Below are positions 17,591 to 51,540 of a stretch of 64,000 nt of DNA, in pieces; the first letter of the stretch is position 1, and each line of letters begins with the position of its first letter. The notes below the pieces were generated by a model that was not told the DNA's origin, made no database searches, and was given only the letters and a program-made list of their open reading frames with translations. Origin of the DNA: Isurus oxyrinchus (Eukaryota). The stretch is from assembly GCA_026770705.1 (NCBI GenBank), contig JANJGN010000009.1:163370001-163434000 (forward strand), written 5' to 3'. The translations under genes were made by a program, and so were the position numbers.

Positions 17591-17649
17591 TTTAACACAA
17601 CCGGCCTAATGGGCCAAATTTGTCTCAGCGTCCAACTCGAGTCTCCAAG

Positions 17650-27175: not shown

Positions 27176-28763
27176 AATAATATATACTTTAGTCAGACAT
27201 TGGTAAGCCCTTGAAGAACCATCAAATCAGGCCTCTGAGCAGGCAGAGAACCAGTCCATACGGTGAGCTTATCATGAAGCTAATGAGTTTACTTCAAGTT
27301 TTTCTAGATGTACCAATCTCAGAACTCCAAAGTAACTGCAAAAGTCAGGACAACAAACCCTGACTAAAATTCATGTTCCCTGCTCATAGGTAAGAGAATA
27401 AATGAAGAATTTCCTTTACAAGATGTAAGTGGCAGTATTTTACATCAGAAGTAATTGCCCTCAGAGGGCTGCACACCTTGGGCAGAATCTTGTGCCCTTT
27501 AAAAATAATCAAAACGTGGGACCATATTTGGCTCTCGACCCATGTGTCTGCCTGAGAGATCTTCCTGGAGGCAGCCAATTAAGAATCCACACCCGGGCCT
27601 ATCATCCGATTGAGGAAGGCAGGCAGGCTAGAGGGCCTGCAGCCTTGGCAGGGGTGCAATTCCACTGGCAGAGGTGGGCACTGCTGCTGCAGAAAGGGGA
27701 ATGTAAGGGTGCCCCCATTTTGAGGCACCCTCTGGAGAGGTATCCACTGTTATAAAAGCTAGTGACCCCAGGTGTTGCCCACTGATGACTGCACCTCCAG
27801 TTGCGAGTTAAAACAGGAGGTCACACGGATGCCCCAGGTCATCTCCAGACGCCTGCTGGGCTTGGCTCTCAGTGGGTGCTAGGGTTGCCAGTGATTAAAT
27901 GCATTCTGGGAGGTTTCATCGCACCCTCATGGTCAGGCCATTAGTTGGCCAACACATCTTGGAGACTCGAGATGGACACTGAGACAAATTTGGCCCATTA
28001 GGCCGGTTGTGTTAAAGAAAAGAAAGAAAGCTGTGGATTTTTATCATGTTTTTTATAATCACTGGATGTCTCAAAGAGCTTTACAGCCCCTGGAGCACTT
28101 TTGAAGTGTAGTCACTGTTGTGATGTAGAAAATGCAGCAGCCGATTTGTGCACAGCAAACCCCCACTAACAGCAATGTGATAATGATCAGGCTATTTGAT
28201 TCTGTGATGTCGATTGAGGGAGAAATAATGGTCCGGACACCGGGGATAACTCCCTTATTCTTCTTCAAAATAATGCCATGGGATCTATTACATTCACTCA
28301 AATAGGCAGATGGGACCTCGGTTTAACATATCACCCAAAAAACAGCACCTCGAACAGTTCAGCCCTCACTCAGTACTACAACAGAGTGTCAACATTTGAA
28401 TTTTCCACTCAAGCCCTGGCATGGAACTTAAAACTGGAACTTGTGAATCATCAGAGCTACCAATGCTGGGGGTGTTGGGGGGGTGGGGGGTCTGGCTGGT
28501 GAGTGCGGTGCTATAAGACCTGGTATTGGGACCACTCTAATTTACATTAATGTCCTGGACTCTGAAACTCAAGGTGAATTGATTACATTTGCTGATGATT
28601 CCAAACTGGGAGGAGCGGTGGGAATGGAGGAGACAATTCCGAAGTTAAAGGAAGAATTGGACTAAAGTAAATATGTGGACAGCTCATGGCAGAAGAAATT
28701 CAATGCAACTGAGATGCAAAGTTAAGAGAACTGTGCAGTACATGTGCCATCCGAATGGTTTCG

Positions 28764-29075
28764 CTAATGAGTAATGGTAGCATATATTGCCATTTCAGAT
28801 TCCTGGGGAGTATCATGTAATGGAGTTTTAGGGTTTTTCTTTGTGGGCTGGTTGTGAATCATGACTCCACTGTAGATGACACTGTCCGGGTTGTTAACTG
28901 AGTGACTTGTCCCTTCACCTCTCTGTGTAGACGATTTCTTTTGTAATTGCACTACTGCATACGTGATTTCCTCATTATTCAACTCGGCAGTTCCCTCTCT
29001 GTGTGTTCCTGCCGAGCTCCTTTGAGTGTGGTTTACATTTGCATACACAGTGCCCTCTTCCTCTGCTGCCAATTC
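28764..29075 (-). CDS. Gene B exon 7, tail with ITSM/ITIM motifs
   Basis: Motifs TVYANV, ITYAVV, VIYSGV and AIYATI, then TAG. Confidence 0.92.
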   Translation of the reverse strand, partial: ELAAEEEGTVYANVNHTQRSSAGTHREGTAELNNEEITYAVVQLQKKSSTQRGEGTSHSVNNPDSVIYSGVMIHNQPTKKNPKTPLHDTPQESEMAIYATITH

Positions 29076-32000
29076 CTAAAAATATTAAAAAAATGATTGC
29101 ATTTATTTTTGATTAGCCTGAATGGTGACTTGTGCTGTTATGAGGAGAAAGCTATATATCCATTATTATAAATCAGTTTATAAAGGATTACAAGATATTA
29201 AAAATTATTTACAGCACAGAAACAAACAATTCAGCCCAATGGGTCTATACCAGTATCATTCTCCTCACAAGCCTCCTCCCACCCCTCTTCATCCAAACTC
29301 TTCAAAATATCTTTCTATTACTTTCTCCCTCAACTGCTTATCCAGCTTTATCCAGCTTTATTTATGGTATTTGCCTGAACCTTGCCCTATAGTAATGAAT
29401 TTCAGATTCTGACACTCTCTGGGTAAAGATGTTCCTTCTGAATTCCTTATTCCTTCCCTGGGGAGGAGTTGAGTCCAATAGGATTGCTGCATTTAAAGGA
29501 AAGCTAGATAAGCACATGAGAGAGTAAAGGACAGAAGGATATGCTGATAGGGTGGGATGAAGAGGGGTGAGAGGAGGTTCGTGTGGAGCATAAAAACCAG
29601 CCTCCTGCAGATGGGCCGAATGGCTGTAAGTTCTTAGTAAATTCTATATCCACCAGCTTGCAAATTTCCAAACAGTATTCAGAGAAGTAATGTCAATATC
29701 CTTACCTGATTATCATGGAGAGTCTTGTCTCTCCGATGACTTAGAATGCAGTTTGTACCTGAAAGATTACAATGTAACTGTTGAAAGAACTGTAACAAGG
29801 AATGGTTAATACGTTTAAAATCTCTAAACTAAACATGTGTTGCAAGTGTGCTAAACCTGACATTGATCCACATTCATGGAAATACGTTCATCTGCATTGC
29901 ACCAATGATTTCCAAGATGTAATGAACAATCAGCCTGGTAATTATACATAGAATGACAAAAGGGTTTGTAGTGTAATGGGTTAATAGAATAGCTATGCTG
30001 ATGAGTGATGTACACCATGATGTATCAATGAAATTGGCAGTCATGTGCTATTTACCTGGGAGAGTGGATGGAACACTCTGTACTCAGGGGAGGCATACCT
30101 ACTCTGTAACCTCTCTTAAATACAGTGTTAATAAAGCAGTTTAAAGCAATTAACAGAGTAACACAAGTTTCTCTCGGTAAGATAGGTCACACACACCAGA
30201 AACCAGCAACTACACTACCAGCATATGACGTTTACTGTCTGACAGAACAGATTGTCTATTAGAGAACGCACCCAAATTTCATTCCATTAATTTCTACGTA
30301 GCACTCTGACAGATTAACACCCGTGATGTGAAAGAGAAAATTAACTCCCGTGTGTTTAGGATTGAGCATTTCAAAAACTGATCAATTCTATCCTGAAAAC
30401 GAGTTCCTGTTGTGTTGTGTCATTGATGGAAGGTCAAGCAATTCATCACAGGGAGAAATCAGAAGCCCAATTTTTCTCACTCAAACAGACGAGCTGTCAA
30501 AGCTTTTTGCCTTGCTCTCATCAGGACAGATTGCAAGAATACCAACAATAAAGGAAGCAACAATTTATAGTGCATGCGAAGAGAGTGCTGATTGCTTCAA
30601 CAGAATAAAATCCTGAGGGTTCTTGATGGCCTGGATGTGGAGAGAATGTTTCCTCTTGTGGAAGAATCTAGAACTAGGGGTCATTATTTAAAAATAAGGG
30701 GTCGCCTCCATTTAAAATGAAGATGAGGCAAAATTTTTTCACTCCTAGGGTCGTGAGTCTTTGGAACTCTCTTCCTGAAAAGGTGGTGGAAGCAGAGTCT
30801 TTGAATATTTTTAAGGGGGAGGTGGATAGATTCTTGGTAAACAAGGGGGTGATAGGTTACTGGGGGGGTAGCTGGGATGCAGATTTCAGGTTACCATCAG
30901 ATCAGTCATGATCTTATTGAATAACGGAGCAGGCTCGAGGGGCTGAATGGCCTACTCCTGCTCCTTGTTCATCTGTTCAAGTGTATTTTTTATCAGCAAT
31001 ACTCAACTTAATTATTCCATGGGCAGAATTTTGCCCTTGTCGGGTGGGCATGGCAGGTGGGCTCAGGAGTGGTTGTGAAGCCGACCACTGCCCCGAATCA
31101 GGCCCCAACATCGATTTCACATGGGCTGGACAATTAATGGCCAGTCAGTGCATAATATGCGCTGCAACGCTCAGCACTGCTGGCGTGAGGGCGGGAGGAG
31201 GGCAAGCGTGCAAGTTTGTGCATGTGTGCGCGTGCTCACAGTGAAAGCTCCCTGAGTCTCAGAGCTGCCTCAGGGAGCTGAAGATTTTGAACAATCAAAA
31301 TAAAGAATTGAAAACTAATGGAAACATGTCCCCTCATGCGACTCTGTCACATGACCATGGGCATTTAAATATGAGTTCTCAAAGTTTTTGCTTTAATCAC
31401 TGGTCAAAACTCCATCCCGCCCATTGATGAGGTTTCGCCAAAAGTGCAAAGGCTGATTGGCCGATTCGACCACAAACCAACCGAACAGTTGGACCGGCAG
31501 CAAAAAATTCAATTCTATTAATTGATTAAGGGCCTTAATAGGTTGCTTCATTGTCAGCGGGTGTTCTGCCGCCTCTCGCACATACCTGCAGAGTGAAATA
31601 TCACCAGAGTGTACGATGATGTCCAGACGCTCGTCTGACCTCATCACGCACTATTTTACTCTCGTTTGGATCTGGTGTGCACCCGCTCGAATAGAGAAAC
31701 ATTCAGCCCCATGTTCAATATGTGTAGACTAGAATGAGAATACTAGGGTCATGGGTGATTGTTGATTGATCCAACAAACTGTATATTCTTTCTATTCTGC
31801 AGCAAATTATTGCCATATAATAAAATGATTAAAGAGAAATAGATACTCACCCTTGTTGATTTGCCTCAGGTACAGAAGTAGAGAAACAGCAAACACCACA
31901 AGAATGCCCCCCAGCACTCCGAGCACAATGTAAATCAGACTGTGAAACAGAGAATAGACAAGGGACAGTGTTGGTTCACAATTGATTATTGGCCATTTGT

Positions 32001-35000
32001 TTAAAGAAATATTTAAAGGTAGATTTTTATAAAGTGGCTTTCATGACCTCAGGACATCCCAAAGCACTTTACAAGCAATGAATATTTTTGATGCAGTGTA
32101 ACTGTGGTAATTTGGCAAATGTGGCATTCAATTTGCACACAGCATGCTCCCACAAATAGCAATTAGATGGATGAACAAATAATTTGTATTGTTTAGTGAT
32201 GTTGCCCAGGTCTCGAGGAAGAACTGCCCTGATCTCCTATGAATGTCACCATGGGATCTGTTACACCCACCTGAGAGAGCAGATGAGCTTTGGGTTTATC
32301 ACATCTGAGAGGTGGCACCTCTAACAGCACAGCACTCCCTCAGTAGTGCACTGGAGTGTCAGCCAAGATAATGTGCTGAGGTCTCTGGAGTGGAATTGAA
32401 CCCACAGCCTTTGACACATAAGGTGAGTGTGTTACCACTGAGCCCTGTTTAATACTGGGTCAGTTTTAATTATTGAAATCCAAATGCAAGAATACCAGAT
32501 GATCCCTGAAAAAATGGAAGTAATAACTGTTTCATACATATATGGATTTCATATTCAGATGATCTTTGTAGTCAACTTTATACAACAGATCAGACATAGA
32601 GATTTGTCTTAAAATAAAAATCAGATACTTTCAATACTTCTTAAATCATTGACAATAATCTGGATAAAAGTAAGTGCACTGCATGTGCTAGAAATATGAA
32701 TGGAAAACAGAAGATTCTGGAAACATTCAGCAGCTCAGTTGGGATCTGTGGGGTGAGTGGACCTGTTTCACTTCGTGTGTGGACTAGAATTCTGAAGAAG
32801 TGTCTGCACCCAAACCATGAACGTGTTTATTTTCTCCACAGCTGCGGACATACCTGCTGTCCATTTCCAACTGTCCCTCTTTCTGTTTGACATTTAGTTG
32901 GCGTTTTCTCTTTATCACCATTGTAACTTCAAAGACCCGATTCCTGAGTGTTTACATCGGACTACAATTTCTGCTACTTATTGTCGACAGCTCAGTCTAA
33001 TCATATGGAAACAGGATCAGAGCTGCAAGATGTCTCTCATTAGTGAAACCAAGGGATGAGCCGATATATCACGCTAATTCTTCCTTTTCATCAGCCAGAA
33101 TACAACTACTCTGTCAGTGTAGACAGCAGCAAGGTAAGTTTGACAAGTACAACTCCTCACACACTGTGAGATTACCTTAGCGGTGAAGTAATCAAGGTGA
33201 ATAAGGCAAAAAACACCATCTGAGCAGCAACACAATGGAAAAGCTCATTCCTTGCTTGTATTTTCCAACAGAAAAATGCACCCTCATTAAAAAGCTAACA
33301 CAACAGCATGATATAAACCCAGCCACCATTTCCATTCTGATGAGCTACTTTCCAAACTAATGAACAACCTTCACTCCTTTGGCCAATCGTATCTCTCACA
33401 TATGGAAGCAATGCCAATCCATGAGAACATTGTACCTTACAGCATTTTTGGGATCTGAAGGTGTGGCTCGATTGATAGTGGAAATTATATCTGTACTTGT
33501 CAAATGTGTAGTTGGTGATACTGTTGTAGAAACATCACAAAAATACTCAGGTCCTGTTGAAACAAGGGAATAACAGTCAGATTCAGCTCATTTTCACTTG
33601 TCGTCAACTGAGAGAGCATCATTGTCAAATGGAACCTCATTAATTGAGGAAAAGCCTGGCTGGTAGAATTGATTTCTGTGTAATTTACCCCTCTCTGGTC
33701 ACAAGTGGAGAGGTCGCAGATACTTGGTGGTGATCTATCTTTACTGGTAATTACACTTTCTTTCCTATCTCTGAGAGTTGGTGGGACAGAGTTACTAGTG
33801 GGCCAGTTAAGGGCTCAGGTTGGTGGACTACAATCCAGAGATACACTTGTTTGACATGAATTTCATGTGCACACAATAAACAGTCACATCCTAATACTGG
33901 CAATGGTCCCTTTCTGCCCTTCGGGGACAGTTTTCTGAGCTTGCAGTAAAGATGAGAATCTTCACCCACTGACCGTGAATGCCTCAAACCTGCCAGTGAT
34001 TTTCTGACCATTTAATTATAATGACCCTCCGTGCTGCTGGGACTGGCTCCTCCCTCCCCCCCTCCAGTTTGCACTCAGATAATTGGATAAGATGCATTTT
34101 AATAAATCGTCTGTTTCAAAAGGTAAGAAATAAGTTGAGTTGATTCATCACCTTTCACAACCTTGGGATATCCTAAACTATTTCAGAGCCTATGAAGTAC
34201 TTTTCTGAAGTAAAGCCACAGTTTTAATATCAGGAAAAATGAAAGTGCATTCGTACACAACAAAGCCCCACAAACATCAGTAAAACATTCACTAGGTGAT
34301 CTGTCTTGTAGTGACATTAACAGGCTCAAAAGACCAAATAGCCTGCTCCTGCTCCCTATTTGTGTGTATTGGTTGAGGAATAAAGGCTTCAAGGACACCA
34401 GGAGAACTTCCCTATTCTGTGAATAATACCCTGGAATTGTTTACATCTACCTAAGGGGGATGTGGATCCTCAGTTTAATACCTCATCTACACAGCAGCAC
34501 CACCACCAGTATAACACTACCTCAGTGCTGGACAGTGGTATCAGCCTGAATTTTAACTCTTATGGGGAACTTGAACATAGAATACATTGGCATCAAAGGT
34601 CAGAGTGCAACTGAGTCCCTGCTGACAACTCCAGTACAAACACTTACAGTTTACAGGTGTAATTTCTACCTGCTGCTGACAGCCTTTGGTCTGAGGCTTG
34701 TGACAGTGGGATTTTATGGTCTGCTGGAGTGCATGGAGTTTAGAATGGCTGGCTGCATTTTACAGCCCAGTCCCTGGCGCAATGGGGGTGTAAAATTCCA
34801 CCCTTCTTCCCTGACAACTGAGGCAAGAGACCACATGACCAGAGTCAATATATTTGCATATGTAAATTCCTGTCTCCTGCTGGTCAGGGGAAAATGTGAT
34901 TCTCTTTGTTTTGTGCCCATGTTGGTGTTTCTCGGTGAACATGCTGCACCCACTCTGCAGAAAATTGAACCGCTACATTCAAATAGGCTAAAGTCCTCCT

Positions 35001-38000
35001 TGTTTCAGAACCAGGGTCATTGTTTTATGGGGAGGGAATAGTTAATTTTTTATACAGGATAATTTGAGATTTTGTCTGGAATGATGGAATTTTTACAACA
35101 TAGGGGAGGGAATTCAGCCCATCGCTCCAATGCTGGTTCTCTGAATGATCTCCTCATTTAATTCCATTTCATTGTCCTTTTCCCACACCCTCATACATTT
35201 GTTTCCCTTTTAAAATCTATTATTAAATTTGTTTGTAAACTTATTTCAGTTGGGCATTCCATGTCCTAAAAACAGTTTGCATCAATAAAATTCTCCAAAT
35301 TTCTCCCTTTGTCCTTTTAGTGATAATTTTAAAGTTAATGCTCTCTTGTTGCTGACTCACTGACTAGTGGAAATAGTTAGAGTTACCTTATCCAAATTTC
35401 TAACAATTTCCACGTCCTCCAGCTGGTCATTCACCTCAGTTGTGATGATACTTTCCTCATGACTAAAACCTCTCATCCAAGGGTTCATTTTAATTCAATT
35501 CTTCTCTATTCTATCAGTGATATCCTTCCCAAACTAGGACACAACAGTTGGAGGTTGCATTTCACAATTCTATCTGCTGGAAATAGACAAATTGCTTTAT
35601 GAAAGCTCTGTCAATCAAATGCTATTTTGATTCGATGGGTTTATTGGAGATTCGGCAATATTTTTGCATGTTTTGGGGATATTTTCTGATCCTGTCCATT
35701 TTTCATGAAAAATGCAACTTAGTGACCTTGTTCAGAATGTTTGAGGAACCAGAGAGACTGAATTTGGCCAGTTGCAATTTCTCAGATTGACTGAAGGAAC
35801 TGAAACAGTGACCAGTTGGATAGACATGAATTTAAAACATTCATTCACCACATTGTTTGTAGAAAGTAACACTTACCAATGTTTCCAATTTGTATCACAT
35901 AACTGCAGCTTTTCGTTGTTACATTCATGAGTGTTAAGTTAACAGTGACAGTGTCACTGGATTTTACTCCCTGATTATTCGAGGCTCTACAGTAATATTG
36001 ATGATGTTGCTGTTTGAAGGATTGACAATGTAGATCCAGTTTATTGGTGTCAGAGATCTTTGAATCTTCAGACAGGGTCTTTTCATACCATGTGTACTGA
36101 ATGGGAAGGGATCCGTGGACAGACTCACAGGAGACGGACACTGAACCCCCAGAACATGAGACATTTAGCGGTGATGAAAATCTAAGCACAGGAACAGACA
36201 CGGGTTCTGTTGGAAGGAAAGAAACATTCAGATACTGAACATTTAATAATCAAATACTCTTCAAACTTTGCACTTCATTTCAGCCAGGCTCTGCCATGTT
36301 GGAATCTCACCAACACATCTACCACTCTATGGGGTGGATGTTAAATTTGGGTTTGGGAACTGGACATGGGAGATAGTTTCAGGTCCTGACACCATTCACC
36401 ATTCTTTTGGCATGCCAACTGCAATTTTCAATGTTCCAGCCAATCAAAAGCCTGGAACTGGTCTCACCATCCAATCAGGGACAGAGGGCGGGTTCCTGAT
36501 GCAAGAGGGCCTCACCAGGTGAGGTGGGAGTTGCTGACCTGAGCATGGAGACAGCAAGGGGAAAGTCCAGGGAAGTTTATTTTATGTTTCAAAACCCGGC
36601 AGCTGCCGGGCCATGATCCTGAAGGGGCAATGTGGTCTGCTAGCATTGCTGAATGAAATCCCAGTGGGTGCAGGAATGGGTCTTTAATTGGCCCCTTTGG
36701 TAAATGTTATTTCCTAAGTTAGCTGCCCACCACTTGACTGCAAGCCGCCCGCTTTCTAAATATTTGGGGCTTGGGATTGTAATGGTAAATTGGCATGGAG
36801 ACCAGCGGTGCCAAATGTCATACCCACCCGCCTCTAATCCTGACACCATACTTTTTAAAAATCCATCCCCATATCTCTCCATCCTCTTAGAGGCCTGAGT
36901 TACCCTTTCAGCCATTATATCAGAACAAATCAGGTCTCCAGATCAGAACAGCAGCTATGATACTGAGAGTATGTTAACATGAATATCATGGTGAACAATA
37001 TCTCTTTGTAGCTGGTAGTGAGCCTCCAATGCTGTTTCATTGTTTGTGAGTTGAATGTGAATTAGTTGGAGAGAATCTTAGAAAAGCAAAGGGGAAAATG
37101 AGGGCAAAATGTTGTCAGATATCGGTTACATGTTTTGTAGCTTTGGATAAGAATGTAAATGTGATTGGCTCTGGTTCTCTGCATGCTGCGATAGAACACT
37201 TCAACCCTGGTACGTGGAGACGAGAGGGGGGACTGTGTGTGGGGTGGTGAGAAAGCTGGAAATACCAGGAATGTTGAGTTTGTGCCGAATTTAACAGCAA
37301 AATCTCACCAGAATTCTTGCACACTGATTGAATGTTTGGCTGGTTTCTAAGTAGGAACGTTATGGTAAAAGTTTGGAAATTGGTGGGAATTTGTCCTCGG
37401 AGCACAGCAGCGAGGAGGGAGTCAGGGTGACTTTGCTGCTTGGGGCAGGATTGGCCAATCATGGGGAGGGAGAAATTGTATAAAACATTTGCCTGGGGGT
37501 GGGGGTGAAGCTTTCGTGTGTCTCCTGGATCACAAGCTGTGCTGGAGAAGGTTCTGGATCCAGCAAATCCCATCATGCATCAACCCGATGCAGGATGGGG
37601 GAGGGGAATTAAAATTCCCTCTTTGATCAAGGGATTAGCCAGAGAAAAGTGACACTTTCGCCAACATTTTTAATGAGGTTTGGCAGGCTTTCACTGCTTT
37701 CACTGTCACAAACTGTACTCTGAAACAACACAGGTCACAGTTTGCCTGGTGATTGGAAAGTGTCTCTTTGAAATGCTAACTGTTTATGAGCTTGTTTCAC
37801 AGCACATTGTTACTCACAAGGCCCAGACCACTGAAAAATTAACTGGGGCTCCAGAACATGGAAAAGGGATTCGGACATGCAGCCCCTTCAGCCTGTTCCA
37901 CAATTCAATTAAGTCACAACTGACCAGTATCTTCTGTCCATTTACCTACCGGGGTCCCATAACCCGAATATTGCTACCAGATAAAATCTGTCAATCAGTT

Positions 38001-41000
38001 TTGAAATTTTCAACTGATTTCAAGAGTTTTTTTGAGGAGAGTATTCTAGATTTTCACTATACCTTGCGTGAAGAAGTGATTCCTGACATCCCTGACGAGC
38101 CTATCTCCAGATTTAAGGTTACGGTTCCATGACGTGGACTGCCTCATCAGTGGATAGGGTCAAAAGTCAACAATTTGAAGTGGTTTTGATATGTTAATGA
38201 ACAAAAAAGAACTTCAACAGATTTGTACATGAAGCAATAACAGGAATAGTTTGAATTGAGTTGTTTTAGTTCAAAGGGAGATATATGCAGGTTGTAACAA
38301 GATGTAAGGAACTGACATAAAGATAGGGTAAGTTTGTTTTTACAAGTCTAAGAGGTAAAGTAAAGATTGATTTAATCAATCCTGGGAAAGAAGCATTTCT
38401 GAACAGACTGGTTTCAACAAAGAGAGATGAAAGAGAAGAAACACATTTAAGGGAATACTGAAGCCTATGTGAGGGGGTAGCTGCTTAGATATCCCAGAAC
38501 ACAGCAGGATGGTTGGCCAGATCTCCCTGAAGACAGCAGGGTAGCAGGTCAGAACTCCCAGGAGACAGTGTGTACAAGGCCCAGACCTGAAGACATCTGT
38601 TTAATGCTACCACTGCATACAATTAAACACAGTTAATAAAGGATTAGATGGTGACCTTCTCTCTTTTTAAATAAAATTTTCAGTTAATATGGAGGAATCC
38701 GTCCACTTGCAGTCTGAGGTGATAGCGCCAGCATGTCAATGCACCAAGGTCAACACTGTTAGGATGGCAGGTGCCATGGAGACGTTGGTCCAGGGCACCG
38801 TTCCTACACTGCTGTGGGGCTGAACTCCATTGCTGATGTATAGTTGGCCCCTGACAGTGTGTATGAGAGAGGGGTGCAGGCAGCTCGATCTCAGTCCAGC
38901 TACCCCTGCTCCTCAAGAATTCAGACACGGGCCCTTGGGTACCCATAGTGAGAAAGATCAACATGTGTACCCTCGGGGCCATTCATCCTGGTAACTCCCC
39001 TCTTACTGTGACCTTGACAGCTCCCAGTTCACAGGCCAAGGAGGGTGCTAATGCCACACAGTAGGACCTCGAAGGGAAGCCAGGGCCCTCCAGGCCTCAG
39101 GCCTCCAGAGGACGCCTGCCAAAGTTATCACAGACAGAGCATAGCAGTCAGCAGACTGTCTTTACCTCCACTCTGGATGTCTGCAGAGCACCAAGATGTA
39201 GCGGGAGGATTAGGAAAGTTGAGAAGATGTAGCTCTTTTAATGCCAAACAAATAAACTAAATTAACAAAATGAGGGATAAAATAAAACGCAGCCCCTAAG
39301 TTAGGGTCACTGCAAAACCAAAGACAGGATTTAAAGGAAACTTATAACATCAAACCAAAATGTGATTAAGAGGGTGGATAAAGCACCCCAACCCCCGTGG
39401 TCGCCCACCGAGCACGGAAGGTCTCAACAGTGCCGGCAGACACCACGTGGTTGAGGAGATGTGCCTCTTTCAAGTTAAAACCAATTAAACCAAATTTACA
39501 AAATTGGGATAAATCAGGCACAGCCCCTAATTCATTTCAGCTGCAAGACCAAGAACAAAGTATAAAGGAAACTTACAAACTTTAAACCAAAATGTGATTA
39601 AAGGGGTCGATAAAACACCCCAGTCCCCGCGGTGCCCAACAAGGCGTTGAGGAGATGTAGCTGCACGTCCTGGGCACTGGTGTTTATCACTTGTACATAC
39701 TGTTCATTATTGTCAATAAACTCCAAAGAATGTCTCCTTGCCTATCGCTGCTTGTTTTGTTGAGCAATGTTCATGTCACTCACATGTGAACACATTCTGT
39801 ACAAGATAAAGGCAGGTGTCTCAGTGCAGGGCCTCTATCCTGTGCTTTGTGCAGCCTTCAGACCAAAGTGATGGCCTGGATTTCACCAATTTGGGTTGAT
39901 TCAGGAGCCCTTTAAAAATGATGGGTGTGTCCTAATTCTGGGATTCCCAACGGCGTTCCAGGGTTGTGTGATTTTGGGAGCAGCTTTAAAGGATACAGGC
40001 TGGCTCCTTCAAAACCCACACCCAGAACTCCCCAACCTGGAAAAACTCAGCAGGTCTGGCAGCATCGGTGGAGAAGAGCAGAATTGACGTTTCGAGTCCT
40101 CATGACCCTTCAACAGAACGAAGTAAAATTAGGAGAGGGATGAAATATAAGCTGGTCTAATGGATTGCGGGGCGGGGGGGGTTGGTGGAGAGAGAAGTGG
40201 GGGGTGGTTGTTGGGACAAGCAAGCAGTGATAGGAGGCGATAACCAAAAGAAGTCACAGACAAAAGAACAAAGAGGTGTTGAAGGTGGTGACCCCAGTTT
40301 CATTCTATTCTTCGTCTCATCCGTCGCCTCAACAAGAAACCTTTTCTCTTTCTCTCAAGTGCTAAGGAACGCAAGCTGCAACAACTCATTGACACCAACA
40401 CACATCCAAGACCCTCCATCCCAGCCTGTCCCTCCGTCCTCATCCCATCTTCCAATCCCAGCCCCGGCCGGGTATTCACTATACCCCCTGACCTTCCCCT
40501 CTTTGATGCTGAACGTTCAGTGCTCAGCAAAGGACTCAGTTTCATACCCTTACGTACTCATCTCAATGAATTTCGGGCTCGGCATGATACTGAACTCTTC
40601 TTTCACCGTCTTCGTTTCCGGGCTCACTTCTTTGGGCAGGAGTCCTCTCCCCTTTCAATGGATCCTTTCACCCATCTCCATATTCTCCCTCCACCTGGAC
40701 CTCTCCATCTAGATTCCTACCTGCTCTTGATCTTTTCATTGAGAACTATCGGCGTAACATTAGTCGTCTCAATTTCTCTGCTCCTCTCACCCATTCTAAC
40801 CTGTCTCTCTCTGAACTTACTGCACTCCATTCTCTCAGGTCCAACCCTGACATTGTCATCAAACCCGCTGACAAGGTTGGTGCTGTTGTTGTCTGGCGCA
40901 CTGACCTCTACCTCGCGGAGGCTGAGCGTCAACTCGCAGACACTTCCTCCTACCTCTCCCTGGACCATGATGGCACCACTGAACATCAAGCCATTGTTTC

Positions 41001-44000
41001 CAGGACTGTCACTGATCTCATCCCCTCTGGGGATCTTCCTCCCACAGCTTCCAACCTGATAGTCGCCCAACCTCGGACGGCCCGCTTCTACCTCCTACCC
41101 AAAACCCACAAACAGGACTGTCCCGCCAGACTGATCGTGTCAGCCTGTTCTTGCCCCAGGGAACTCATTTCTCGCTATCTTGAGTCCCTTCTCTCTCCCC
41201 TTGTCCAGTCCCTTCCCACCTACATCCATGATTCCTCTGACACCTTACGTCACATCACCAATTTCCAGTTCCCTGGCCCCAACCGCCATTTCCATCCCCT
41301 TTCCGTTTCTTCCCCCACCTTTTTGTTTTTTCCAATACTTTATATAGATTTTTCTTTTCCCAACTATTTCCGTTATTTTTAAATGTATTTCCATCCATTG
41401 TTTATCACTTCCTTTTAGCTTTTTAGTATTCCTTCACCCCACCCCACCCCCGTTACGTCTATCTGTACCTTGTTTGTCCTGCTTTCTACCCTTAATTAGC
41501 ACATTCCTTTAGATAATATCACCACCTTCAACACCGCTTTGTACTTTTGTCTGCGACATCTTTTGGTTATCTCCTCCTATTACTGGCTTCTTGTCACAAC
41601 AACGCACCTACCCTCCTCTTAAACCAGCTTATACTTCACCCCTTTCCTTTTGTAACTTAGTTCTGTTGAAGGGTCATGAGGACTCGAAATATCAACTGTG
41701 CTCTTCTCCACCGATGCTGCCAGACCTGCTGAGTTTTTCCAGGTATTTCTACTTCTGTCTTTGGTTTGGATTTCCAGCATCTGCAGTTCCTTGCTTTTAT
41801 CTCAATATTTATCTTTGTTTAGCATTTCAGCAAACAATTGTTTTGTGACTTACTGCACTCCGTTCTCTAAGATCCAACCGCAACATTGTCATCAAACCCG
41901 CTGTCAAGGGTGGTGCTGTTGTTGTCTGGCGCACTGACCTCTACCTCGCAGAGGCTGAGCGTCAAGTCGCAGACACTTCCTCCTAACCCTCCCTGGACCA
42001 TGACCCCACCACTGAACATCAAGCCATTGTTTCCAGGACTGTCACTAACCTCATCCCCTCTGGAGATCTTCCTCCCACAGCTTCCAACCTGATAGTCGCC
42101 CAACCTCGGATGGCCCGCTTCTACCTCCTACCCAAAATCCACAAACAGGACTGTCCCGGCAGACCGATCGTGTTAGCCTCTTCCTGCCCCACGGAACTCA
42201 TTTCTCGTTATCTTGACTCCCTTCTCTCTCCCCTTGTCCAGTCCCTTCCCACCTACATCCGTGATTCATCTGACACCTTACGTCACATCAACAATTTCCA
42301 GTTCCCTGCCCCCAACTGCTTCCTCTTCACCATGTACGTCCAATCCCTCTACACCTCCATCCCCCACCAGGATGGTCTGAGGGCCCTTAGCTTTTTCCTC
42401 GAACAGAGGCCCGAACAATCCCCATCCACCACTACTCTCCTCCGTCTGGCTGAACTTGTTCTCACACTGAACAATTTCTCCTTCAACTCCTCTCACTTCC
42501 TCCAAATAAAAGGTGTGGCTATGGGTACCCACATGAGCCCCTGTCTCTTTATGGGGTATATGGAACATTCCTTGTTCCAGTCCTACTCCGGCCCCCTCCC
42601 ACACCTCTTTCTCCAGTACATCGATGATTACTTCGGTGCCGCTTCATGCTCTCTTTGGGACCTGGAAAAATTTATTAATTTTGCTCTGAATCTCCACCCC
42701 TCCATCATTTTCACATGGTCCATCTCTGATACTTCCCTTCCCTTCCTTGACCTCGCTGTCTCAATCTCTGGTGATAGACTGTCCACCAATATCCATTACA
42801 AGCCTACCGACTCCCACAGCTACCTCGACTACAGCTCCTCACACCCCGCTTCCTCTAAGGACTCCATCCCATTCTCCCAGTTCCTTTGCCTTCGTCGCAT
42901 CTGTTCCAATGATGCTACCTTCAAAAATAGTTCCTCTGACATGTCCTCCTTCTTCCTTTACCGAGGTTTTCCACCCACGGTCGTTGACAGGGCCCTCAAC
43001 CGTGTCCAGCCCATCTCCCGCGCAGCCGCCCTCACGCCTTCTCCTCCCTCCCAGAAACATGATAGGGTCCCCCTTGTCTTCACTTGTCACCCCACCAGCC
43101 TCCGCATTCAAAGGATCATCTTCCGCCATGTCCGCCAACTCCAGCATGAAGCCACCACCAAACACATCTTCCCTTCACCAGCCCCCCCCCGGTGGCATTC
43201 CGTAGGGATTGTTCCCTCCAGGACACCCTGGTCCAGTCCTCCATCATCCCCTACTCCTCAACGCCCACCTATGGTACCTCCCCATGCCCACGCAAAAGAT
43301 GCAACACCTGCCCCTTCACTTCCTCTCTCCTCACTGTCCAAGGGCCCAAACACACCTTTCAAGTGAAGCAGCATTTCACTTGCATTTCCCCCAACTTAGT
43401 CTACTGAATTAGTTGCTCCCAATGCAGTTTCCTTTACATTGGAAAGACCAAACGCAGACTGGGTGACCGCTTTGCAGAACACCTTCGGTCTGTCTGCAAG
43501 CATCACCCAGACCTCCCTGTCGCTTGCCATTTCAACACTCCACCCTGCTGTCATGCCCACATGTCTGTTCCTTGGCTTGCTGCATTGTTCCAGTGAACGC
43601 AAACTGGAGGAACAACACCTCATCTTCTGACTTGGCACTTTACAGCCTTTTGGACTGAATATTGAGTTCAACAACTTTAGATCTTCAACTCCCTCCTCCA
43701 TCCCCACCCCCTTTCTGTTTCTTCCTCCTCCTTTTTATTTTTTACAATAATTTATATAGATTTGTCTTTTCCCACCTATTTCCATTATTTTTAATGTATT
43801 CCACTGATCATTTATCTATACCTTTTATGCCCTTTTAGTCTTATTTCACCCCACCCCCACTAGACCTATCTGTACCTTGCTTGTTCTGCTATCCATTCTT
43901 AATTAGCACATTCTTTTAGATAATATCACCACCTTCAACACTTCTTTGTTATTTTGTCTGTGACATCTTTTGGTTATCTCCTCCTATCACTGCTTGCTTG

Positions 44001-47000
44001 TCCCAACAACCACCTCCCCACTTCTCTATCCACTCGCACCCCCACCCCCACCCCTTAGACAAGCTTATATTTCACCCCTCTCTTCTTTTTACTTAGTTCT
44101 GTTGAAGGGTCATCAGGACTCGAAACATCAACTGTGCTCTTCTCCGCCGATGCTGCCAGACCTGCTGAGTTTTTCCAGGTATTTCTTATTTTTTGTTTTG
44201 GATTTCCAGCATCCGCAGTTTTTTGTTTTTATTTTTGTTTTTAACTCCCCAACCTGGCTGCCTCCATTGTGGAGATGGACACGTCCTACTCCTCTGCAAT
44301 TTTCATGGATTTGGGCCAAGTTTTGAATGAGTCGTAGTCCAAAGCCCCTCAGATGAGCTGTAAACACTGGTCTGCATGAGGGGTCCTTTTAACAATTAAG
44401 TTCAAAAGGTCCATCTCATGCCCCCTATGTCAAGTCACACCCCCATCCAGCCCATTTGGCCCTTCATGCCCCCTATATCGCTTTACCCATGCCTTATACC
44501 CCCTCATGCTCCTGACTTCAAGCTGTACACTTCCACCCAACTCCAAGCCCCCTCATGACAAATTTTCCCCTTACACCCACCCCCTTTATGGGCTGTGAGG
44601 GGTGAGGGGTGAAGGGCCTTTGTGTTTTGAGCTTAGCTGTTACAAAGTCCAAGGGCATTAAGGAGGGGCCTTTTAAACAGCCCGTCTCCGCAGCCGGCAG
44701 CCCCTGTGGCTGCCTCTGCATTTCTTCCTGGTGTGGCTGGCCAGACTGCAGCCCGGGCACAGCTCCCAGCAATGGGAATCCCACCTTTGTGGGCACTTTC
44801 TTCCAAGGCCGAGCGGGGAATTTTCCGAATTGCCCCTACCCGCTTTGAGGCTGAATATCCAGCCCAATGTCTCAACAATTAATAAAGAGGCTTCTTTTAC
44901 CATCAAAACAACTTCTCAATTTCCGTTTAGTTCACTTGTAAAGTTCAACTCTGACATGTCGGACAGGCCATGAATTGGGTTTGGGTAACATGAGTCGGAT
45001 TTCCCGACCACTGCCCTTTACCTTTAAGACTCTGCATTGCTGTGGAGCCTCGGGATATCGGAGCTGTCATGTTTCCTCCCAGATAAAACATTGAGCAGAC
45101 ATTTCAGTCGAGAATAATAAAGAAAATCAGTAAGAAATGTACCGTAAGATATTTGTAGCCAGACAGCAAACATTGAATCGAGGAGGCCAGGTTTGTCAAT
45201 ACCACAGCTGTACCATCCTGTATCTCTTGAGCGAAGATCCTCCATAGTAACAATAAATATTCCTTGTGACTTGTTATCTGTGACCGATATTCTTCCATTT
45301 CGCCAATTTGTCGATGCTACAACATTACACTGGCGACTCTTGCCAAGACACCAATATTTTATATGTGACTTGTACCACTGTGCATCATAGTGACATTCTA
45401 TTGTGATCGCTCTTCCCACAACTCCTGTTACTCTGTCTTTTGCCCACAATGCACCTGAAACTGAGGAGACAACATTTCAGGAATTGAACAGGAAATAACT
45501 GCTTAATTCAAAGAGATACATTTTAATGAGTTAAATTCCATCAAGTTTGTGATGAGAGTAAACTTTCATATAGACACTTATCAGAGCCTCACTCTGTTCC
45601 AAAGCACATCACAGACAATGATTTACTTGTGAGATATTTGGGGCATTTTCTTGACTTATTGGCAGGGGCTGGTAGAGTGAGGGGAACCTGGAAATTGGGG
45701 TTCTGCCTCATACTGTGGGGTTTCACCCTAGACTGCGTATGACATCATCAAGAGGTTCCACAGCCAGAAACCAGCCTGACTGACAGGCCTGATTTGCAGT
45801 CGGTTGGGGAGCAGTGTGGAGGGGGTCACAGGAGCCGACAGTTCCCTGCTCTGATCTGAGGTGGGTGGGGTGCGGGAGATGGTTGGATCATTGCAGGAGG
45901 GCGTGTTCAGATCTTGAATGAGTTAGGGACATCCAAAGGTAGGATTTGAAGGCCTTGAAAGTTTGAGAGGTTGTGTGATAGGTGGCCTTGTAGGATGGAT
46001 GGATTCCTGAGGTAGGGATTTGGATGCTTTGACTTGAATATTCATGAGACCAATGGCCTTGCTGGGAGAGAAACTCATGCTGTGGGGAAAGAGTTTGCAC
46101 TAACATAAGAAAAGAGAGATTGAAAATAATTAAATGGCTAGAGAGAAGTGAAGGAAAGGAAAAAGATACAGGAAAAGTTACAGATGAAAAGGGAATGGGA
46201 AAGAGATCAGATCAGAAAGAGGAAGGATTGAAAAGAAGAAGATTGCCAAACAGACAGAAACATGATTCAGTTTCCTGTCCATAAGTACATCAAGTATTCT
46301 GCATTAAATTGATCAGCTAGAGGCACAAAATATTTTGGGGAGGTGGTTAAGAGCAGATGGGTCTGGGAGTTTAACATTGTGTGTTATAAAATACATTCAT
46401 TGAAAATGATGGAGAGGTGGCAATACTGAGTGACGAGCAAAATCTAGTTTCTTAAAGTTAAAGAATGAACAAGAAAAGGCTACTTATGAGAAGAGTGATG
46501 TAGACCAACCATCTACCAGTGAGGAACAGTGTCACTGAGAGAGCCTCATAACACAATATTTCATCAACTGTACTTTAAAAAACAGAAATATTTGCAAACT
46601 TGGGACATGTTTTATTTGTGGGATTATTACCGTTCCAGTCTTCAGTGTATACTGGACATCAGATTATATTGAAAATTATCAATTAAAACAGGTTTTCATT
46701 TTCAAAATGTTGCTTGCATAGATTTCTGAAAATTAAATTCTCCTTTACTTATCATTCATAGTTAATAATGCAGTTCAGTTTATTTGTTAACTATTCCCAT
46801 GGTGTGATAGTAAATTCACAGTATAATAATATACTTCACAATTATTATTCATTTGGTTTTGCTGACTATTTTGTGCCTTTAGACTTAGGAGACTTCCCAC
46901 ATCTAGAGACGGATGCGGCAGACAAAGCACATGTTTACTTTTGCTTTCCAAAGCTTGTTTACCCCGGAACAGGTCACTAACACCGGAGACAACAGAATGA

Positions 47001-47364
47001 GCGGCACCACTCCACATCAAACATGTCGGACTGGGATCTCTCACCCTCTTCCCACCAGCCTTAGGTCTGTTGGAAGATGTTCGGGTTGATAATCAACCTG
47101 TTGGGCTTGGTTAGAACGCGCCTTCCATTCTCAACAAGAACAGGAGTTCTTGACAAAGCTTCAAAGACAGAGCTTCTGGCTCAGATACAGAGACACTACC
47201 CACTGAGCCCAAGACCTCTTTTGTGCCTTTGCATGTCTCCAAATATTTTAACATCTCCTGTATAACCAGCGTACGAGAGTTAAACCAACTCAGATTATTG
47301 GAATATCCAGCTCTGGCTGTCACTCACCGGGCAGAGAACAAATGAGGAGAATCAAAATCCACAT
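28764..47364 (-). CDS. Gene B: inverted paralog of gene A, inhibitory Ig-superfamily receptor, 7 coding exons, 418 aa
   Basis: Exons (minus strand) 47364-47328, 45460-45143, 36206-35877, 33553-33436, 31939-31851, 29758-29706 and 29075-28764. Splice sites are intact; 1257 nt open. Confidence 0.92.
29706..29758 (-). CDS. Gene B exon 6, cytoplasmic
   Basis: GTNCILSHRRDKTLHDNQ; AG/GT intact. Confidence 0.85.
31851..31939 (-). CDS. Gene B exon 5, transmembrane segment
   Basis: Nucleotide-identical to gene A exon 5. Confidence 0.92.
33436..33553 (-). CDS. Gene B exon 4, Ser/Thr stalk
   Basis: GPEYFCDVSTTVSPTTHLTSTDIISTINRATPSDPKNAV; paralog of 12242-12359. Confidence 0.85.
35877..36206 (-). CDS. 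Gene B exon 3, second Ig domain
   Basis: Paralog of 9619-9942, two codons longer. Confidence 0.93.
38688..39872 (+). mobile_element. Harbinger-type fragment, B-arm copy (truncated)
   Basis: Reverse complement of 4793-5948. Confidence 0.7.
39233..39645 (-). mobile_element. Two tandem Tx1-like tails in the B arm (39233-39449, 39465-39645)
   Basis: WAPRGLGCFIDPFNHILV* end; three copies of gttgagragatgtag at 39218, 39450 and 39646. Confidence 0.7.
40082..40120 (-). ncRNA. Minimal type I hammerhead-ribozyme-like motif in Penelope pseudo-LTR (best-preserved copy)
   Basis: gtt-CUGUUGA-a-GGGUC augag GACUC-GAAACGUC-aau; the core has U in place of canonical A6. Confidence 0.55.
42110..43366 (+). pseudogene. 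Penelope reverse transcriptase ORF (frameshifted before the endonuclease)
   Basis: 418-aa ORF with PLE RT motifs. Small deletion after GTHMSP, frameshift at a C run (~43182-43190), stops in the GIY-YIG part. Confidence 0.85.
45143..45460 (-). CDS. Gene B exon 2, IgV domain
   Basis: ECHYDAQWYKSHIKYWCLGKSRQC...DTGWYSCGIDKPGLLDSMFAVWLQISY; splice sites conserved. Confidence 0.95.
47328..47364 (-). CDS. Gene B exon 1, signal peptide MWILILLICSLP
   Basis: Reverse-complement match to 1532-1568; donor gtgagt. Confidence 0.88.
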
Positions 47365-47825
47365 CGTTTTGTTCACAAAGATCAGGACAGAACTTGTTTC
47401 CAGACACTCAGCTCTTGTTTCGCACATCGAAATAAGTGTCTAATATAAATGCTACAAGGAACTTAAATGAGGAAGAAGATAGCAGGAAGACAGATCATGA
47501 AGACATATCAAGGCAGCTGATGAAATCTGACCCCTAAGAACTTGAACTTCTGTCAGTTATATTTAACAAAAGAACTAAACTAATTTTCATTGAAAGGATA
47601 TAAAATCCTGAAAACAAGAATGTTAAAAAGTTAGAACATATGGATAATGATGAGCTGAGCTAGTATTGATACTGAATTGTGAGGTGAGTTAGAACAGGAA
47701 CCCCCTCCCAATTTCCACAAACCCCACAGGAACAGAAGTATTTTTTTCATTTCTGAAATTTAGTTGTCCAATTGAATACAGAGATTTCTTAATATTTTGG
47801 TTTTATTTGCTAATCTTTGTAGATC

Positions 47826-48415
47826 ACCCATAAGCACCTGATTGATTTAAAAAGAAAGGAGATACCCCACAAAATGATGTTCCACCTGTAGCCATTGTTG
47901 AACCTGTGGTTCCTGTTAAAATTGTACAGCCAAGGATAGTCATGCCCGATGTCTCTGTTGGAGTGGACGACACTGATCTGCCTGTGCCTAATGAGGTACC
48001 TGATGTTATTGCAGAGACTGTGGTTCCTGTCAAAGAATCAGAGGTGGTGAAGCTATTCCACATGGATCAGGAAACCACTTGAAAGACTGAACTTATAATT
48101 TCAAGACCTGTGTAAATATTTTAATGTCATAAGATAAACATCCATGTGAATACAAATTGTACAGAAATGTAAAAGGGTGAGGAATGTAATAATTATAGTT
48201 TTGATCAGTGTAGGACTGTAACATTAAAAATAATCCGTTGTTGTAAAAGAACATGATCTGTGTTAACCAATCAATTTGCAGCATGGGGAACCTCCACGGG
48301 GAGTTGTCCTTTAGTTATAGAGTTAGATACACACATGTAGCTGCTGCTGCTGTCTTGTAAATAAAGTTCAATGTTTCCACCCAGAAAAGTTGCCTGGAAA
48401 ATCAACTCTATAACA
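47826..48415 (+). mobile_element. Gypsy-type relic, B-arm copy (LTR 48185-48415)
   Basis: PPT followed by TGTAAT...AATAAA...ATAACA. Confidence 0.65.
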
Positions 48416-48554
48416 ATGGGCTAGAACTTACTGAAAATATAATGGGGTATGAACAACAAACACCTCTTTTAATGTGAAAATCAGTCAGCAACTTTTGGCG
48501 ATGAAGAGAAAAGCCAATGAATCGTGAAATGCCACAAGTTACTGCTGATTTGTA

Positions 48555-51540
48555 CCACTCCACCTCTGCCTTAAAAATATTCAAAGACTCACCTTCACCA
48601 TCTTTTCAGAAAGAGATTTCCAAAGACTCACGAGCCTCTGAGTTCAAAAAAATCACCTAATCTGTGTTCTAAATGGGTGACCCCTCATTTTCCCACAAGA
48701 GGAAACATCCTCTCTGCACTCACCCTGTCAAGTCCCCTCAGGAACTTATATGTTTCAATCAAGTCGCCTCTTACTCTTCTAAACTCCAGCAGATAGAAGC
48801 CTAGTCTGTCCAACCTTTCCTCATTAGACAATCCACCCATTCCTGGTATTCGCCTGGTAAACCTTCTCTGAACTGCTTCCAATGCATTTACATCCTTCCT
48901 TAAATAATGTGACCAATACTGTACAGAGTCCTCAAAATGTGGTCTCACTAGTGCCCTATGCAGATGAAGAATAACTTCCCTACTTTTGTATTCAATCTCC
49001 CTCACAATAAATGAAATCATTCTATCAGCTTTCCTAATTACTTGCGGTATCTCCATACTAACCTTTTGTGATTCATGCACTAGGACAGCTAGATCCCTCT
49101 GCACCTCAGAGCTCTGCAATCTCTCACCATTAAGATAACATGCTTCTCTTTTACTCTTCCTGCCAAAATGGACAATTTTACATTTTCCCACATTATACTC
49201 CATTTTCCAGATCAGTGCCCACTGTCTAAACCTATCTATATCTTTTTGTAGCCTCCTTCTGTCCTCTTCACAACTTACTTTCTACCTATCTTTGTGTCAT
49301 CAGCAAATTCAGAAACCATCCCTTCAAACCCTTCATCCAAGTCATTTATATAAAGTGTAAACTGTTGAGGTCCCAGCAATGATCCCTGTGCCACAACACT
49401 CTTATATCTTGCCAAACTATAAAAGATCCTTTAATGCCTACTCTCTGCTTCTTCTTAGCCAGCCAATGTTCTATCCATGCCAATATGTTACCCACTACAC
49501 CATGAGCTTTTATTTTCCGCAATAACTTTTGAAGTGCCACTTTATGAAACGCCTTCTAGAAACCTCAGTACAGTACATCCACCGGTTCCCCTTTCTCCAC
49601 AGCACATGTTACTTCCTCAAAGAACTCCAAAAAACTGGATAAACAGATTTCCCTTTCACAAAACCATGTTGATTCTGCCTGATGACCATGACCTTATCCA
49701 AGTGTCCTGCTATAATTTCTTTAATAATAGCTTCTAACATTTTCAATATGACTGGTGCAAAATGCCTGTTCAATTCATCTGCCATCTCCTTGTTTCCATT
49801 ATCAATTCTCCAGGCTCACCTTCTATAGGACCAGCACACACTTTGTTCACTCTTTTCTTTTTTACGTACTTATAAAAACTCTTCCTATCTGTTGTTATAT
49901 TCCTGGCTACCTTTCTCTCATAAACTAAATTTTCCCTTCTTATTAGTCTTTTAGTCATTCTTTTCTGTTCCTTTTATTCTGTCCAATCTTCTGACCTGCC
50001 ACCTGTCTTTGCAGAATTATATACTTTTCCTTCGAGGTTGATACTATGTTTAAACATTCAAGTTAACCACGGATGGTGTGTCCGTCACTTAGACTTTTTC
50101 TTACTCGTTGGAATGTGCATTCTGAAATATCCCCTCAAATATGAGCCATTGCATCTCGATTGACCTGTCCCTTAACCTATTTTGCCAATTCACTTTAGCC
50201 ATCCCAGCTTTCATGTCCTTATAATTGCCCTTATTAAAGTTTAAAAACTTACAGTGGGATTTTCCACACCCGCTCGCCGGCCCTTCCTGTCCTGTCGCAA
50301 GTCAGTGGGGCATCTGGCTAGGGAACTGCCTCCCCCACAGCGAGTCCCACCAGCAGCAGAGCCCAAAAATCCCCGCCTTAGACTCAGACCCACTCCTCTC
50401 TCCTACAAACTGAATGTAAAATTCATCCTATTATGGTCACTATTTCCTAGGGGCATCTTCATGGTGAGATCGTTAATTCCTCCCATCTCATTGCACAGTA
50501 GTAGGTCTAGTATAGCCTGCTGTCTGGTTAAATCCAGAACATGCCGTTCTCAGAAACTATCTTGAAAACATTCAATGTACTCCTCAGCTAGGCTATCTGT
50601 TGATTTACTATTAGATTTGTTCTCACTATACCCCCTTGTCAGTGTCTGGTTTTCATTTTTCCTAATAATACCTTTATCTTTTGACTTGTCTCTGCTCATT
50701 GAATTACAACATTATCCCGAATATGATCTGTTGTCCACTATTTAGTTTAAAAACCTCTCTACATCCCTAGTTATGTGGCTTGCAAGAACACTGGTCCCTG
50801 CACGGTTCAGGTGTAGACCATCCCAATGGTACAGATCCCACTTTCCCCAGTACTGGTTCTTGTGCCCTACAAACCAGAACCCACTTCTTCCACACCAGCC
50901 TTTGAGGCACATTCACCTCCTGAGTCTGATTTGTCCTGTGGCAATTTGCACATGGCTCAGGTAATAATCCATCGGTTATGACCTTTGAGGTTCTGCTTCT
51001 TAATCTGATGCCTCATTCCTCATATTGATTGTGCAGAATCTCCTTCTCTGTGCTGCCTATGTCGTTGGTGCTTATATGGACCACGAAGACTGGGTGCTCC
51101 CCCTCCCAATGCAAGTTCCTCCCCAGACCCGAGCCGACATCCCACACCCTGGCACCGGGCAGGCAACATGGTTGTGTGGACTCACGCTGTTTGCTGCAGA
51201 GAACAGTGTCAATCCCTCTGACTATACTATCCCTCACTCCCGCTACATTCCTGTTTGCTCCCCCCACTTGGATGGTTTCCTGTGCCATGGTGCCAAGGTC
51301 AGTTCGCTCATCCCCCCTGCTCACCCGCTGCTCTTGTCCAAACAAGCTGAGAAAAGTTCAGACCTGTAGAACAATTGTAAAGGCTGAGGCTCCTGCGCTC
51401 CTGCCCTCTGGGTCCCTTTACCTGCCGCACTCGCAGTCACACTCACCCTGTCCTAAGAGCTGTGATTGCCTCCTGGCACAAAGAATCCAGGTAAATTTCC
51501 TTCTCCCTGATGCGTCGCAGTGTCTGTTCTGAGCTGAAGC
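48555..51540 (-). mobile_element. Long decayed CR1-clade LINE (ORF1 esterase, endonuclease and RT remnants)
   Basis: ORF1 SGNH-like DSIVRGID...CLPGARV...VVHISTNDIG (51013-51345); RT LLRKIKAHG; C-terminal MEYNVGKCKIVHFG...VQRRFTR. Confidence 0.9.

Follow-up and report, generated by a model that had tools for sequence, protein, structure and literature searches.

Comparison of the two arms of an inverted duplication in Isurus oxyrinchus with their relatives across the genome supports a layered history of LINE insertion at a single base. An old 217-bp insertion, growth of the surrounding cluster, and then independent re-insertions in arms A and B by two younger subfamilies would together account for the present sequences, and we place the probability of this reading at about 0.85. 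The initial annotation had proposed parallel insertions, after the duplication, into a regenerated target; the membership of the second inserts in different subfamilies, the 16 paralogues that have one insert only, and the allele at position 9 of the target-site duplication all support that proposal. The site is a clean natural replicate of re-insertion at the same base, with the ancestral state kept in those 16 paralogues.

Structure of the site and identity of the inserts

The window, by which we mean the whole 64,000-nucleotide stretch of DNA analysed, holds an inverted duplication in which A 1-17649 matches B 48889-27958, with long blocks 95-97% identical. Arm A (1..17649, forward strand, its start lying before the window) is an Ig-domain gene block, arm B (27958..48889) lies on the reverse strand, and Ig V-set and Ig-domain exons are present in the duplicated block of both. 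The stack of arm A is hosted by a decayed Harbinger transposon at 4791..6538 (no strand assigned), the extent of which is taken from its match to a third copy. The Harbinger copy of arm B (38689-39874) is cut by a 1.3-kb deletion. The third copy (56526..57899, no strand assigned) is more divergent, and its target site at ~57670-57684 is empty.

Each arm has three 15-bp direct repeats around two inserts (A 5005-5392, B 39218-39660). On the forward strand of arm A, the upstream target-site duplication (5005..5019) is followed by A1 (5020..5145), a 126-bp 5'-truncated 3' end of a Tx1-clade LINE of the "A-tail" subfamily that comprises the last ORF2 codons, the stop and the 3' UTR. Next come the middle duplication (5146..5160), with the upstream allele at position 9 and a first base that matches the element's own 3' end, the 217-bp old Tx1 unit (5161..5377), orthologous to 39233-39449, and the downstream duplication (5378..5392). 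The order is the same on the reverse strand of arm B: the upstream duplication (39646..39660), which is the native left flank of the Harbinger site; B1 (39465..39645), a 181-bp 5'-truncated 3' end of the "B-tail" subfamily, with a fresh truncation close to a recurrent start ~185-195 nt from the 3' end; the middle duplication (39450..39464), again with the upstream copy's allele at position 9; the 217-bp 3' end of an older Tx1 subfamily (39233..39449), inserted before the cluster expanded; and the downstream duplication (39218..39232). The coordinates and insert lengths (217, 126 and 181 bp) first assigned to these features proved exact, as did the placement of both second inserts at the same base in the two arms.

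Arm B also has ~4.2 kb (40017-44243) that is absent from arm A and contains RT-coding frames with a weak RVT_1 match; these have a Penelope-like look. Elsewhere in the window, a degenerate tandem repeat with a period of ~27 bp (53500-54200) has long open frames on both strands.

Dispersed relatives of the inserts reach further 5' into an open frame with an RT domain, and the frame of one longer copy, L091, matches RVT_1 at E 3e-14. The best named match of its 686-aa ORF2 part is Xenopus Tx1 ORF2 (YTX2_XENLA; 45% identity, 99% covered, E 3e-178). A C-terminal zf-RVT match is weak and sub-cutoff. Protein homologues of the L091 ORF2 carry the AP-like endonuclease domain PF03372; the longest local copy retrieved is 2.3 kb. 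As judged by ORF2 protein similarity, the longer copies confirm that the inserts belong to the Tx1 clade of non-LTR retrotransposons, so that the earlier "Tx1-like" label was well chosen. The units have the hallmarks of such elements: a constant 3' end, varying 5' truncation, lengths of 40-2315 bp, and target-site duplications. The duplication proper is 14 bp, or 15 with a first base supplied by the element, since within a subfamily the downstream 15-mer always starts with the same letter, irrespective of the one found upstream. We rejected the 217-bp unit as a full-length SINE, as its dispersed relatives run further 5' into ORF2. Several points of 5' truncation, at distances of about 185-195, 252, 280 and 391-396 nt from the 3' end, recur in unrelated loci, possibly reflecting RT pausing or RNA structure.

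Origin of the second inserts

The 217-bp units of A and B differ at 10/217 sites (4.6%), and the flanks at 20/379 (5.3%) and 38/529 (7.2%). Between A1 and B1, 16/124 sites differ in a gapped alignment that also has two 2-bp indels (12.9%), and 21/126 differ without gaps (16.7%; 84% identical), a divergence that exceeds that of the pooled 217-bp unit and flanks (Fisher p=0.007). The initial annotation had put these inserts roughly 15% apart and above the arm background. The figure stands and so does the excess over the pooled background, but divergence between the arms is patchy: of ~130 windows, each 126 columns wide, the most divergent shows 18 differences (14.3%) and four others show 14-15. 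As background can reach 14.3%, divergence alone is suggestive and not decisive, and evidence from outside the arms is needed. The 4.6% divergence of the 217-bp units, together with the paralogues described below, bears out the earlier statement that this insert is common to both arms, and shows that it is common by descent. The identical truncation point of the two 217-bp units, also remarked on earlier, agrees with descent, although in this family such sharing alone is no proof of it.

Such evidence comes from copies dispersed through the 4.98 Gb of genome searched. The best relatives are 97% identical to A1 and 95% identical to B1 (best 40 of 1534 and of 2017 candidates scored, respectively). 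When 115 distinct 3' ends were compared, the partner insert ranked only 84th and 74th of 114, so that A1 and B1 are not each other's closest relatives at background divergence, the outcome that had been named as contrary to independent insertion. At 10 of the 21 columns where A1 and B1 differ, each agrees with the majority of its own family (5 are substitutions, 5 belong to an indel-shifted tail); of the rest, B1 has private states at 6 and A1 at 3, and 2 columns are unclear. Over 126 positions, A1 lies 4 differences from its own family majority and 15 from the other, and B1 lies 7 and 18. B1 is thus the farther from its majority (7/126 versus 4/126), even though its subfamily is found upstream of A-type units in stacks.

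A sample chosen without regard to similarity gave the same division. Copies were drawn by tail pattern only, from genome-wide exact matches numbering 180 B-type and 37 A-type, and 59 loci yielded 16 A-tail and 22 B-tail copies of usable length. Four columns outside the selecting pattern track the tail, in 12, 13, 14 and 16 of the 16 A-tail copies and in 21, 22, 21 and 22 of the 22 B-tail copies. The alignment and tree with genomic copies that had been suggested as a check place each second insert with a different subfamily. In this tree, each tail class forms one side of a branch with support 92/95, and a clade of A1 and B1 is rejected (p-AU 0.0001; p-AU 0.072 when the last 26 nt are removed). 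At the level of sequence, A1 and B1 are shown to be members of two different dispersed subfamilies.

The two arms, correctly described in themselves by the initial annotation, turn out to be only two members of a larger cluster. With the 217-bp unit as query (40 candidates scored), we recovered at least 28 paralogues of the site in C9:163.37-164.26 Mb; the best dispersed copy is 92% identical to this unit. Besides A and B, the 28 comprise 16 paralogues in which the 217-bp unit stands by itself and 10 with a four-unit stack composed of a SINE, a unit of ~185 bp, a unit of ~800 bp, and a version of the old unit that is only 195 bp long. Single-insert copies have different bases at position 9 of their upstream and downstream duplications, and the middle duplication of A and of B has the upstream allele, which shows that the 217-bp unit was already in place when each new unit duplicated the upstream copy.

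The blocks of the array in this interval contain Ig-domain genes; most have the same orientation, and several are nearly identical, through either recent amplification or assembly redundancy. In the four-unit stack (L079-L088) the old unit is 22 bp shorter, and its start and its young-type first bases are those of the 185-bp unit two places upstream, a sign that units of one stack may exchange their 5' junctions.

B, the single-insert copies L062 and L063, and the stack class have a deletion with the same breakpoint, 555 bp into the right flank; where B has this deletion, Harbinger sequence is retained in A and in 14 single-insert copies. The flank tree likewise joins B with L062, L063 and the stack class (12 copies) at 96/91, with A outside. 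Monophyly of A and B was not rejected in a test on the flank tree (p-AU 0.139), and flank SNP synapomorphies form a mosaic pattern with one derived allele exclusive to A and B. Parsimony favours three independent histories of re-insertion at the same base. By rough hand arithmetic, the chance that 3/5 lineages would be re-hit at a 10% background is p ~0.009, a rough hint that filled sites are hotter than empty ones. Exact junctions genome-wide, 423 internal versus 536 terminal, lean in that direction too, with the caveat that SINE arrays may also grow by unequal exchange.

APE-type elements nick the bottom strand, prime reverse transcription there, cut the top strand 14 nt downstream and join the 5' end variably. 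Under the history that we favour, an old Tx1-clade LINE would have left a 217-bp truncated copy in a preferred Harbinger site, the gene block around this site would then have multiplied to at least 28 copies, and younger Tx1 subfamilies would have entered the target duplication on the 5' side of the 217-bp unit, once per arm. From what is established for target-primed reverse transcription, the endonuclease would place its bottom-strand nick at the left edge of the upstream duplication. The native left flank of the upstream duplication survives every insertion, so each newcomer lands 5' of the previous copy and the site is regenerated. Ordinary 5' truncation, without junction inheritance (see below), probably gave A1 and B1 their 126 and 181 bp; both have young alleles from the first base onward and new truncation points.

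It is improbable, in our estimate, that a second insertion in the common ancestor was later overwritten in one arm by cDNA of the other subfamily, through TPRT-primed conversion with priming at the unit's 3' junction and resolution at the upstream duplication. The family does recombine with resident copies, as its chimeras attest, and the flank tree leaves monophyly of A and B unrejected. Even so, such replacement would still call for two retrotranspositions at the same base, plus a precise loss in L062/L063 and a replacement in the stack class; the 5' ends of A1 and B1 contain no remnant of the old alleles, and the constant order of tails in stacks (12:0, below) argues for upstream entry of new material. 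A three-unit ancestor, from which A and B each lost a different unit by recombination between the 14-15-bp duplications, is more improbable still. Multi-unit stacks are common, and SINE stacks with higher-order repeats suggest unequal exchange (L147), but both units, or a triple stack containing them, are found in 0/28 paralogues, and at least two precise losses would be needed in addition to the loss in single-insert copies. Least credence goes to the reading in which the common ancestor of the two arms received one second insertion, followed by a 55-bp deletion in A and locally fast divergence: A1 does align over its full length with the 3' 126 bp of B1, its first 28 bases are identical, and arm divergence is patchy enough to reach 14.3% in one background window, but the subfamily-diagnostic sites refute this reading, as random divergence would neither fit the units to different dispersed sets at 10 columns nor explain the four tail-tracking columns outside the selecting pattern (p-AU 0.0001), and the deletion of B is also present in the single-insert L062/L063.

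Common 5' junctions in stacks elsewhere in the genome

In the fetched loci that were parsed, neighbouring LINE units often start at an identical position that is specific to the locus. Examples are L060 (five complete units at ~-415), L057 (three at -430), L055 (three at -327) and L006 (four at ~-252). Adjacent pairs share their start in 25/33 cases at loci chosen by similarity and in 13/22 at loci chosen by pattern; the count was automatic, with four doubtful rows and one likely mis-call scored as "different". Between loci the start is shared in 16/276 comparisons (5.8%), and against that rate 13/22 has a binomial p of 3e-11. The target- and junction-anchored samples consist mostly of empty sites and SINE stacks, with 2 LINE-LINE pairs only.

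Same-start pairs were compared in a hand-picked set of 25 from 16 loci: the unit bodies are 2-14% divergent, much as units of unrelated loci are (mean 9.2%), and 11/19 of the rare alleles shared within these pairs lie in the first fifth of the unit. Tail class, which is coarse, differs in 26 same-start pairs and is the same in 11; tail order among classified pairs is constant (12:0), with old subfamilies downstream. The upstream unit of L209 is a chimera that has the junction of the old downstream unit, its private deletion and ~95 bp of private alleles, followed by young alleles. L193 and L242 are clear chimeras as well, in which neighbours have in common a non-element 5' tag (L193) or private alleles in the first 30 bp (L242); in L003 and L010 they have in common 70-120 bp of non-element 5' sequence. 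Stacks occur at unique off-target sites as well (L010, L019, L020, L229). A and B, with their fresh truncations, are exceptions to this sharing of junctions. The idea that a diverged resident blocks inheritance was not supported, as L193, L209, L242 and L020 inherited from residents with 78-83% identity.

When one LINE re-inserts on another, the cDNA of the newcomer is likely, in roughly 60-75% of cases, to be resolved on the resident copy and so to acquire the resident's 5' end. The nascent cDNA would find a homologous template, the resident, 14 bp from the nick. This may be through annealing of the cDNA to the top strand, cut or unwound inside the resident. Alternatively, the cDNA may switch onto the resident and run off the resident's 5' end. 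By either route the newcomer would carry the 5' junction of the resident, along with the resident's first tens of bases, ahead of a young 3' part. Gilbert et al. are said to have described, in 2005, chimeric L1 formation with a neighbouring L1. We consider it somewhat probable that junction copying is the usual finish beside an older copy, and that serial insertion of subfamilies builds equal-length head-to-tail arrays, newest unit 5', that mimic tandem duplication. If true, arrays would record the succession of subfamilies like strata, and residents would make sites hotter, even at unique off-target loci.

Same-start stacks might also arise when a copy is duplicated in tandem between its target duplications and younger subfamilies then convert the 3' ends, or when one microhomology is used repeatedly, which we hold to be possible but rather unlikely; duplication with later 3' conversion is the main rival for the stacks and is doubtful to the same degree. 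Some neighbours are very similar (2.1% in L057, 4.1% in L060, 4.8% in L051), 11 same-start pairs have one coarse tail class, starts recur near 190, 280 and 392 nt, and the R1 study takes identical junctions as amplification of one event (PMC2718515). Yet 26 same-start pairs differ in tail class in an order that is never reversed (12:0), starts differ across loci despite an identical duplication sequence, and a plain duplicate of the 217-bp unit is present in 0/28 cluster paralogues. Microhomology cannot supply the common 19-120 bp non-element 5' tags or the private deletions (L003, L010, L193, L209). Private tags common to neighbours therefore make microhomology insufficient, and different tails in a constant order are unlike what plain duplication predicts. 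Should junction inheritance hold, stacks could serve for the relative dating of subfamilies, and satellite-like arrays could form without unequal crossing-over.

Target preference, partner SINE and known systems

The host site lies downstream of a transposase gene in L047 (DDE_Tnp_4, PF13359, E 2e-16), a gene seen in L047 and not in the window copies. As judged by this HARBI1-type transposase, the host sequence is a Harbinger-type transposon. As for the Myb/SANT-like second ORF of such transposons, the Harbinger copies of the window show a decayed convergent frame, and a Pfam search of window positions 55921-56523 gave zero matches. Among 54 independent loci chosen by tail pattern (6/60 were left out because they repeated a stack already counted or were the window), a Harbinger flank lies within 1.5 kb in 26/54, a share that may be raised because the selecting patterns held the first bases of the target; the remaining 28 have no detected flank and mostly unrelated duplications. 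This share is above the >20% of flanks of one type that marks target preference in PMC4494074. Strict sequence specificity, with nearly all copies in one target, was not observed. The Harbinger site is a preferred target, and the preference is real but loose and not exclusive. The target was empty in 27 of the first 30 checked of 474 exact-match sites, a proportion for which exact matches may favour young host copies, and it is far from saturated. The parallel inserts of A and B, put forward initially as an internal control for target specificity, can be only a weak control of it, as the site is preferred and not exclusive (26/54).

The stacks also contain a 138-bp SINE with the same 14-bp duplication and target as Tx1, which has only the last few bases in common with the Tx1 3' end. 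It was seen in L079 (313-450), L116, L147-L152, L171 and L173, in stacks of up to ten or more units, and its units are usually upstream of LINE units in stacks. Its head is weakly tRNA-like (Rfam tRNA 15.6 bits, gathering threshold 29), and an ARAGORN scan found no tRNA in 4 loci. It is likely to be a Tx1-mobilised, target-preferring SINE; no description of it was found in the literature searched. In composite units, the terminal 88 nt of the SINE follow a LINE sequence that stops 24 nt short of its normal 3' end. These composites are near-identical in many unrelated loci (L013, L043, L051-L053, L130, L161, L182) and are apparently a mobile chimera. The off-target stack of L013 (oriented 1063-1388) includes, between the same duplications, a unit that resembles a U6 snRNA-headed retrocopy.

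Same-start LINE stacks bear on 5'-end joining, of all steps in target-primed reverse transcription the one least understood, and on the usual rule by which copies truncated at the same point are taken for duplicates of a single event. The window site also warns that, where a target is preferred, the presence of a retroposon can be a homoplastic marker. The literature that we searched, mostly without subscription journals, Repbase Reports and supplements, contained neither independent stacked insertions with a common 5' junction nor this Tx1 family; within the same scope, we found no earlier report of junction inheritance as the majority outcome in natural stacks.

Among Tx1 elements, close parallels are crocodilian. 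According to Kojima 2015 (PMC4494074), Tx1-9_AMi targets Harbinger, Tx1-Mar targets Mariner, and SINEU occurs in tandem around the target duplication. Tx1-9_AMi is thus alike in belonging to the Tx1 clade, in preferring a DNA transposon, Harbinger included, and in having a tandem partner SINE. The two differ, when compared by description, in that Tx1-9_AMi inserts ~300 bp from the Harbinger 5' end and the present family downstream of the transposase gene (L047); SINEU has a U1/U2 head, unlike the weakly tRNA-like head of the partner SINE here. Tx1 of Xenopus laevis, the best named protein match, also targets a DNA transposon, according to the same paper (PMC4494074), but has another host transposon and another target sequence.

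Double-insertion TE dimers are tandems that arise when one site is hit repeatedly, and they have the duplication at their junction (McGurk and Barbash 2018, PMC5932611). Distinct 5' truncations are there read as independent events, as in A and B; the accessible part of that paper does not describe independent insertions with a common truncation point. In L1 templated insertions (bioRxiv 10.1101/2024.08.27.596794), the cDNA leaves the RNA and copies DNA within ~15 bp in an SDSA-like manner, duplicating it. Those events are rare, whereas here the adjacent template is a homologous resident and the outcome is seen in the majority of LINE-on-LINE pairs.

A close precedent for the order of events is R1 in the 28S rDNA of Drosophila, where additional copies enter the 14-bp duplication at the 5' end of the resident, as set out by Stage and Eickbush 2009 (PMC2718515). 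R1 as described there is likewise a site-preferring APE-type non-LTR element with a 14-bp duplication and serial insertion on the 5' side, and serial insertion of this type is indicated here by the position-9 allele, the single-insert paralogues and the 12:0 tail order. The target of R1 in that account is rDNA, whereas here it is Harbinger and the stacks hold layered subfamilies of different age; identical junctions of R1 are read in the same text as one amplified event, whereas same-start neighbours here belong to different subfamilies (PMC2718515). Set beside these systems, the window site is a new, well-controlled case of a known process, re-insertion into the 5' target duplication.
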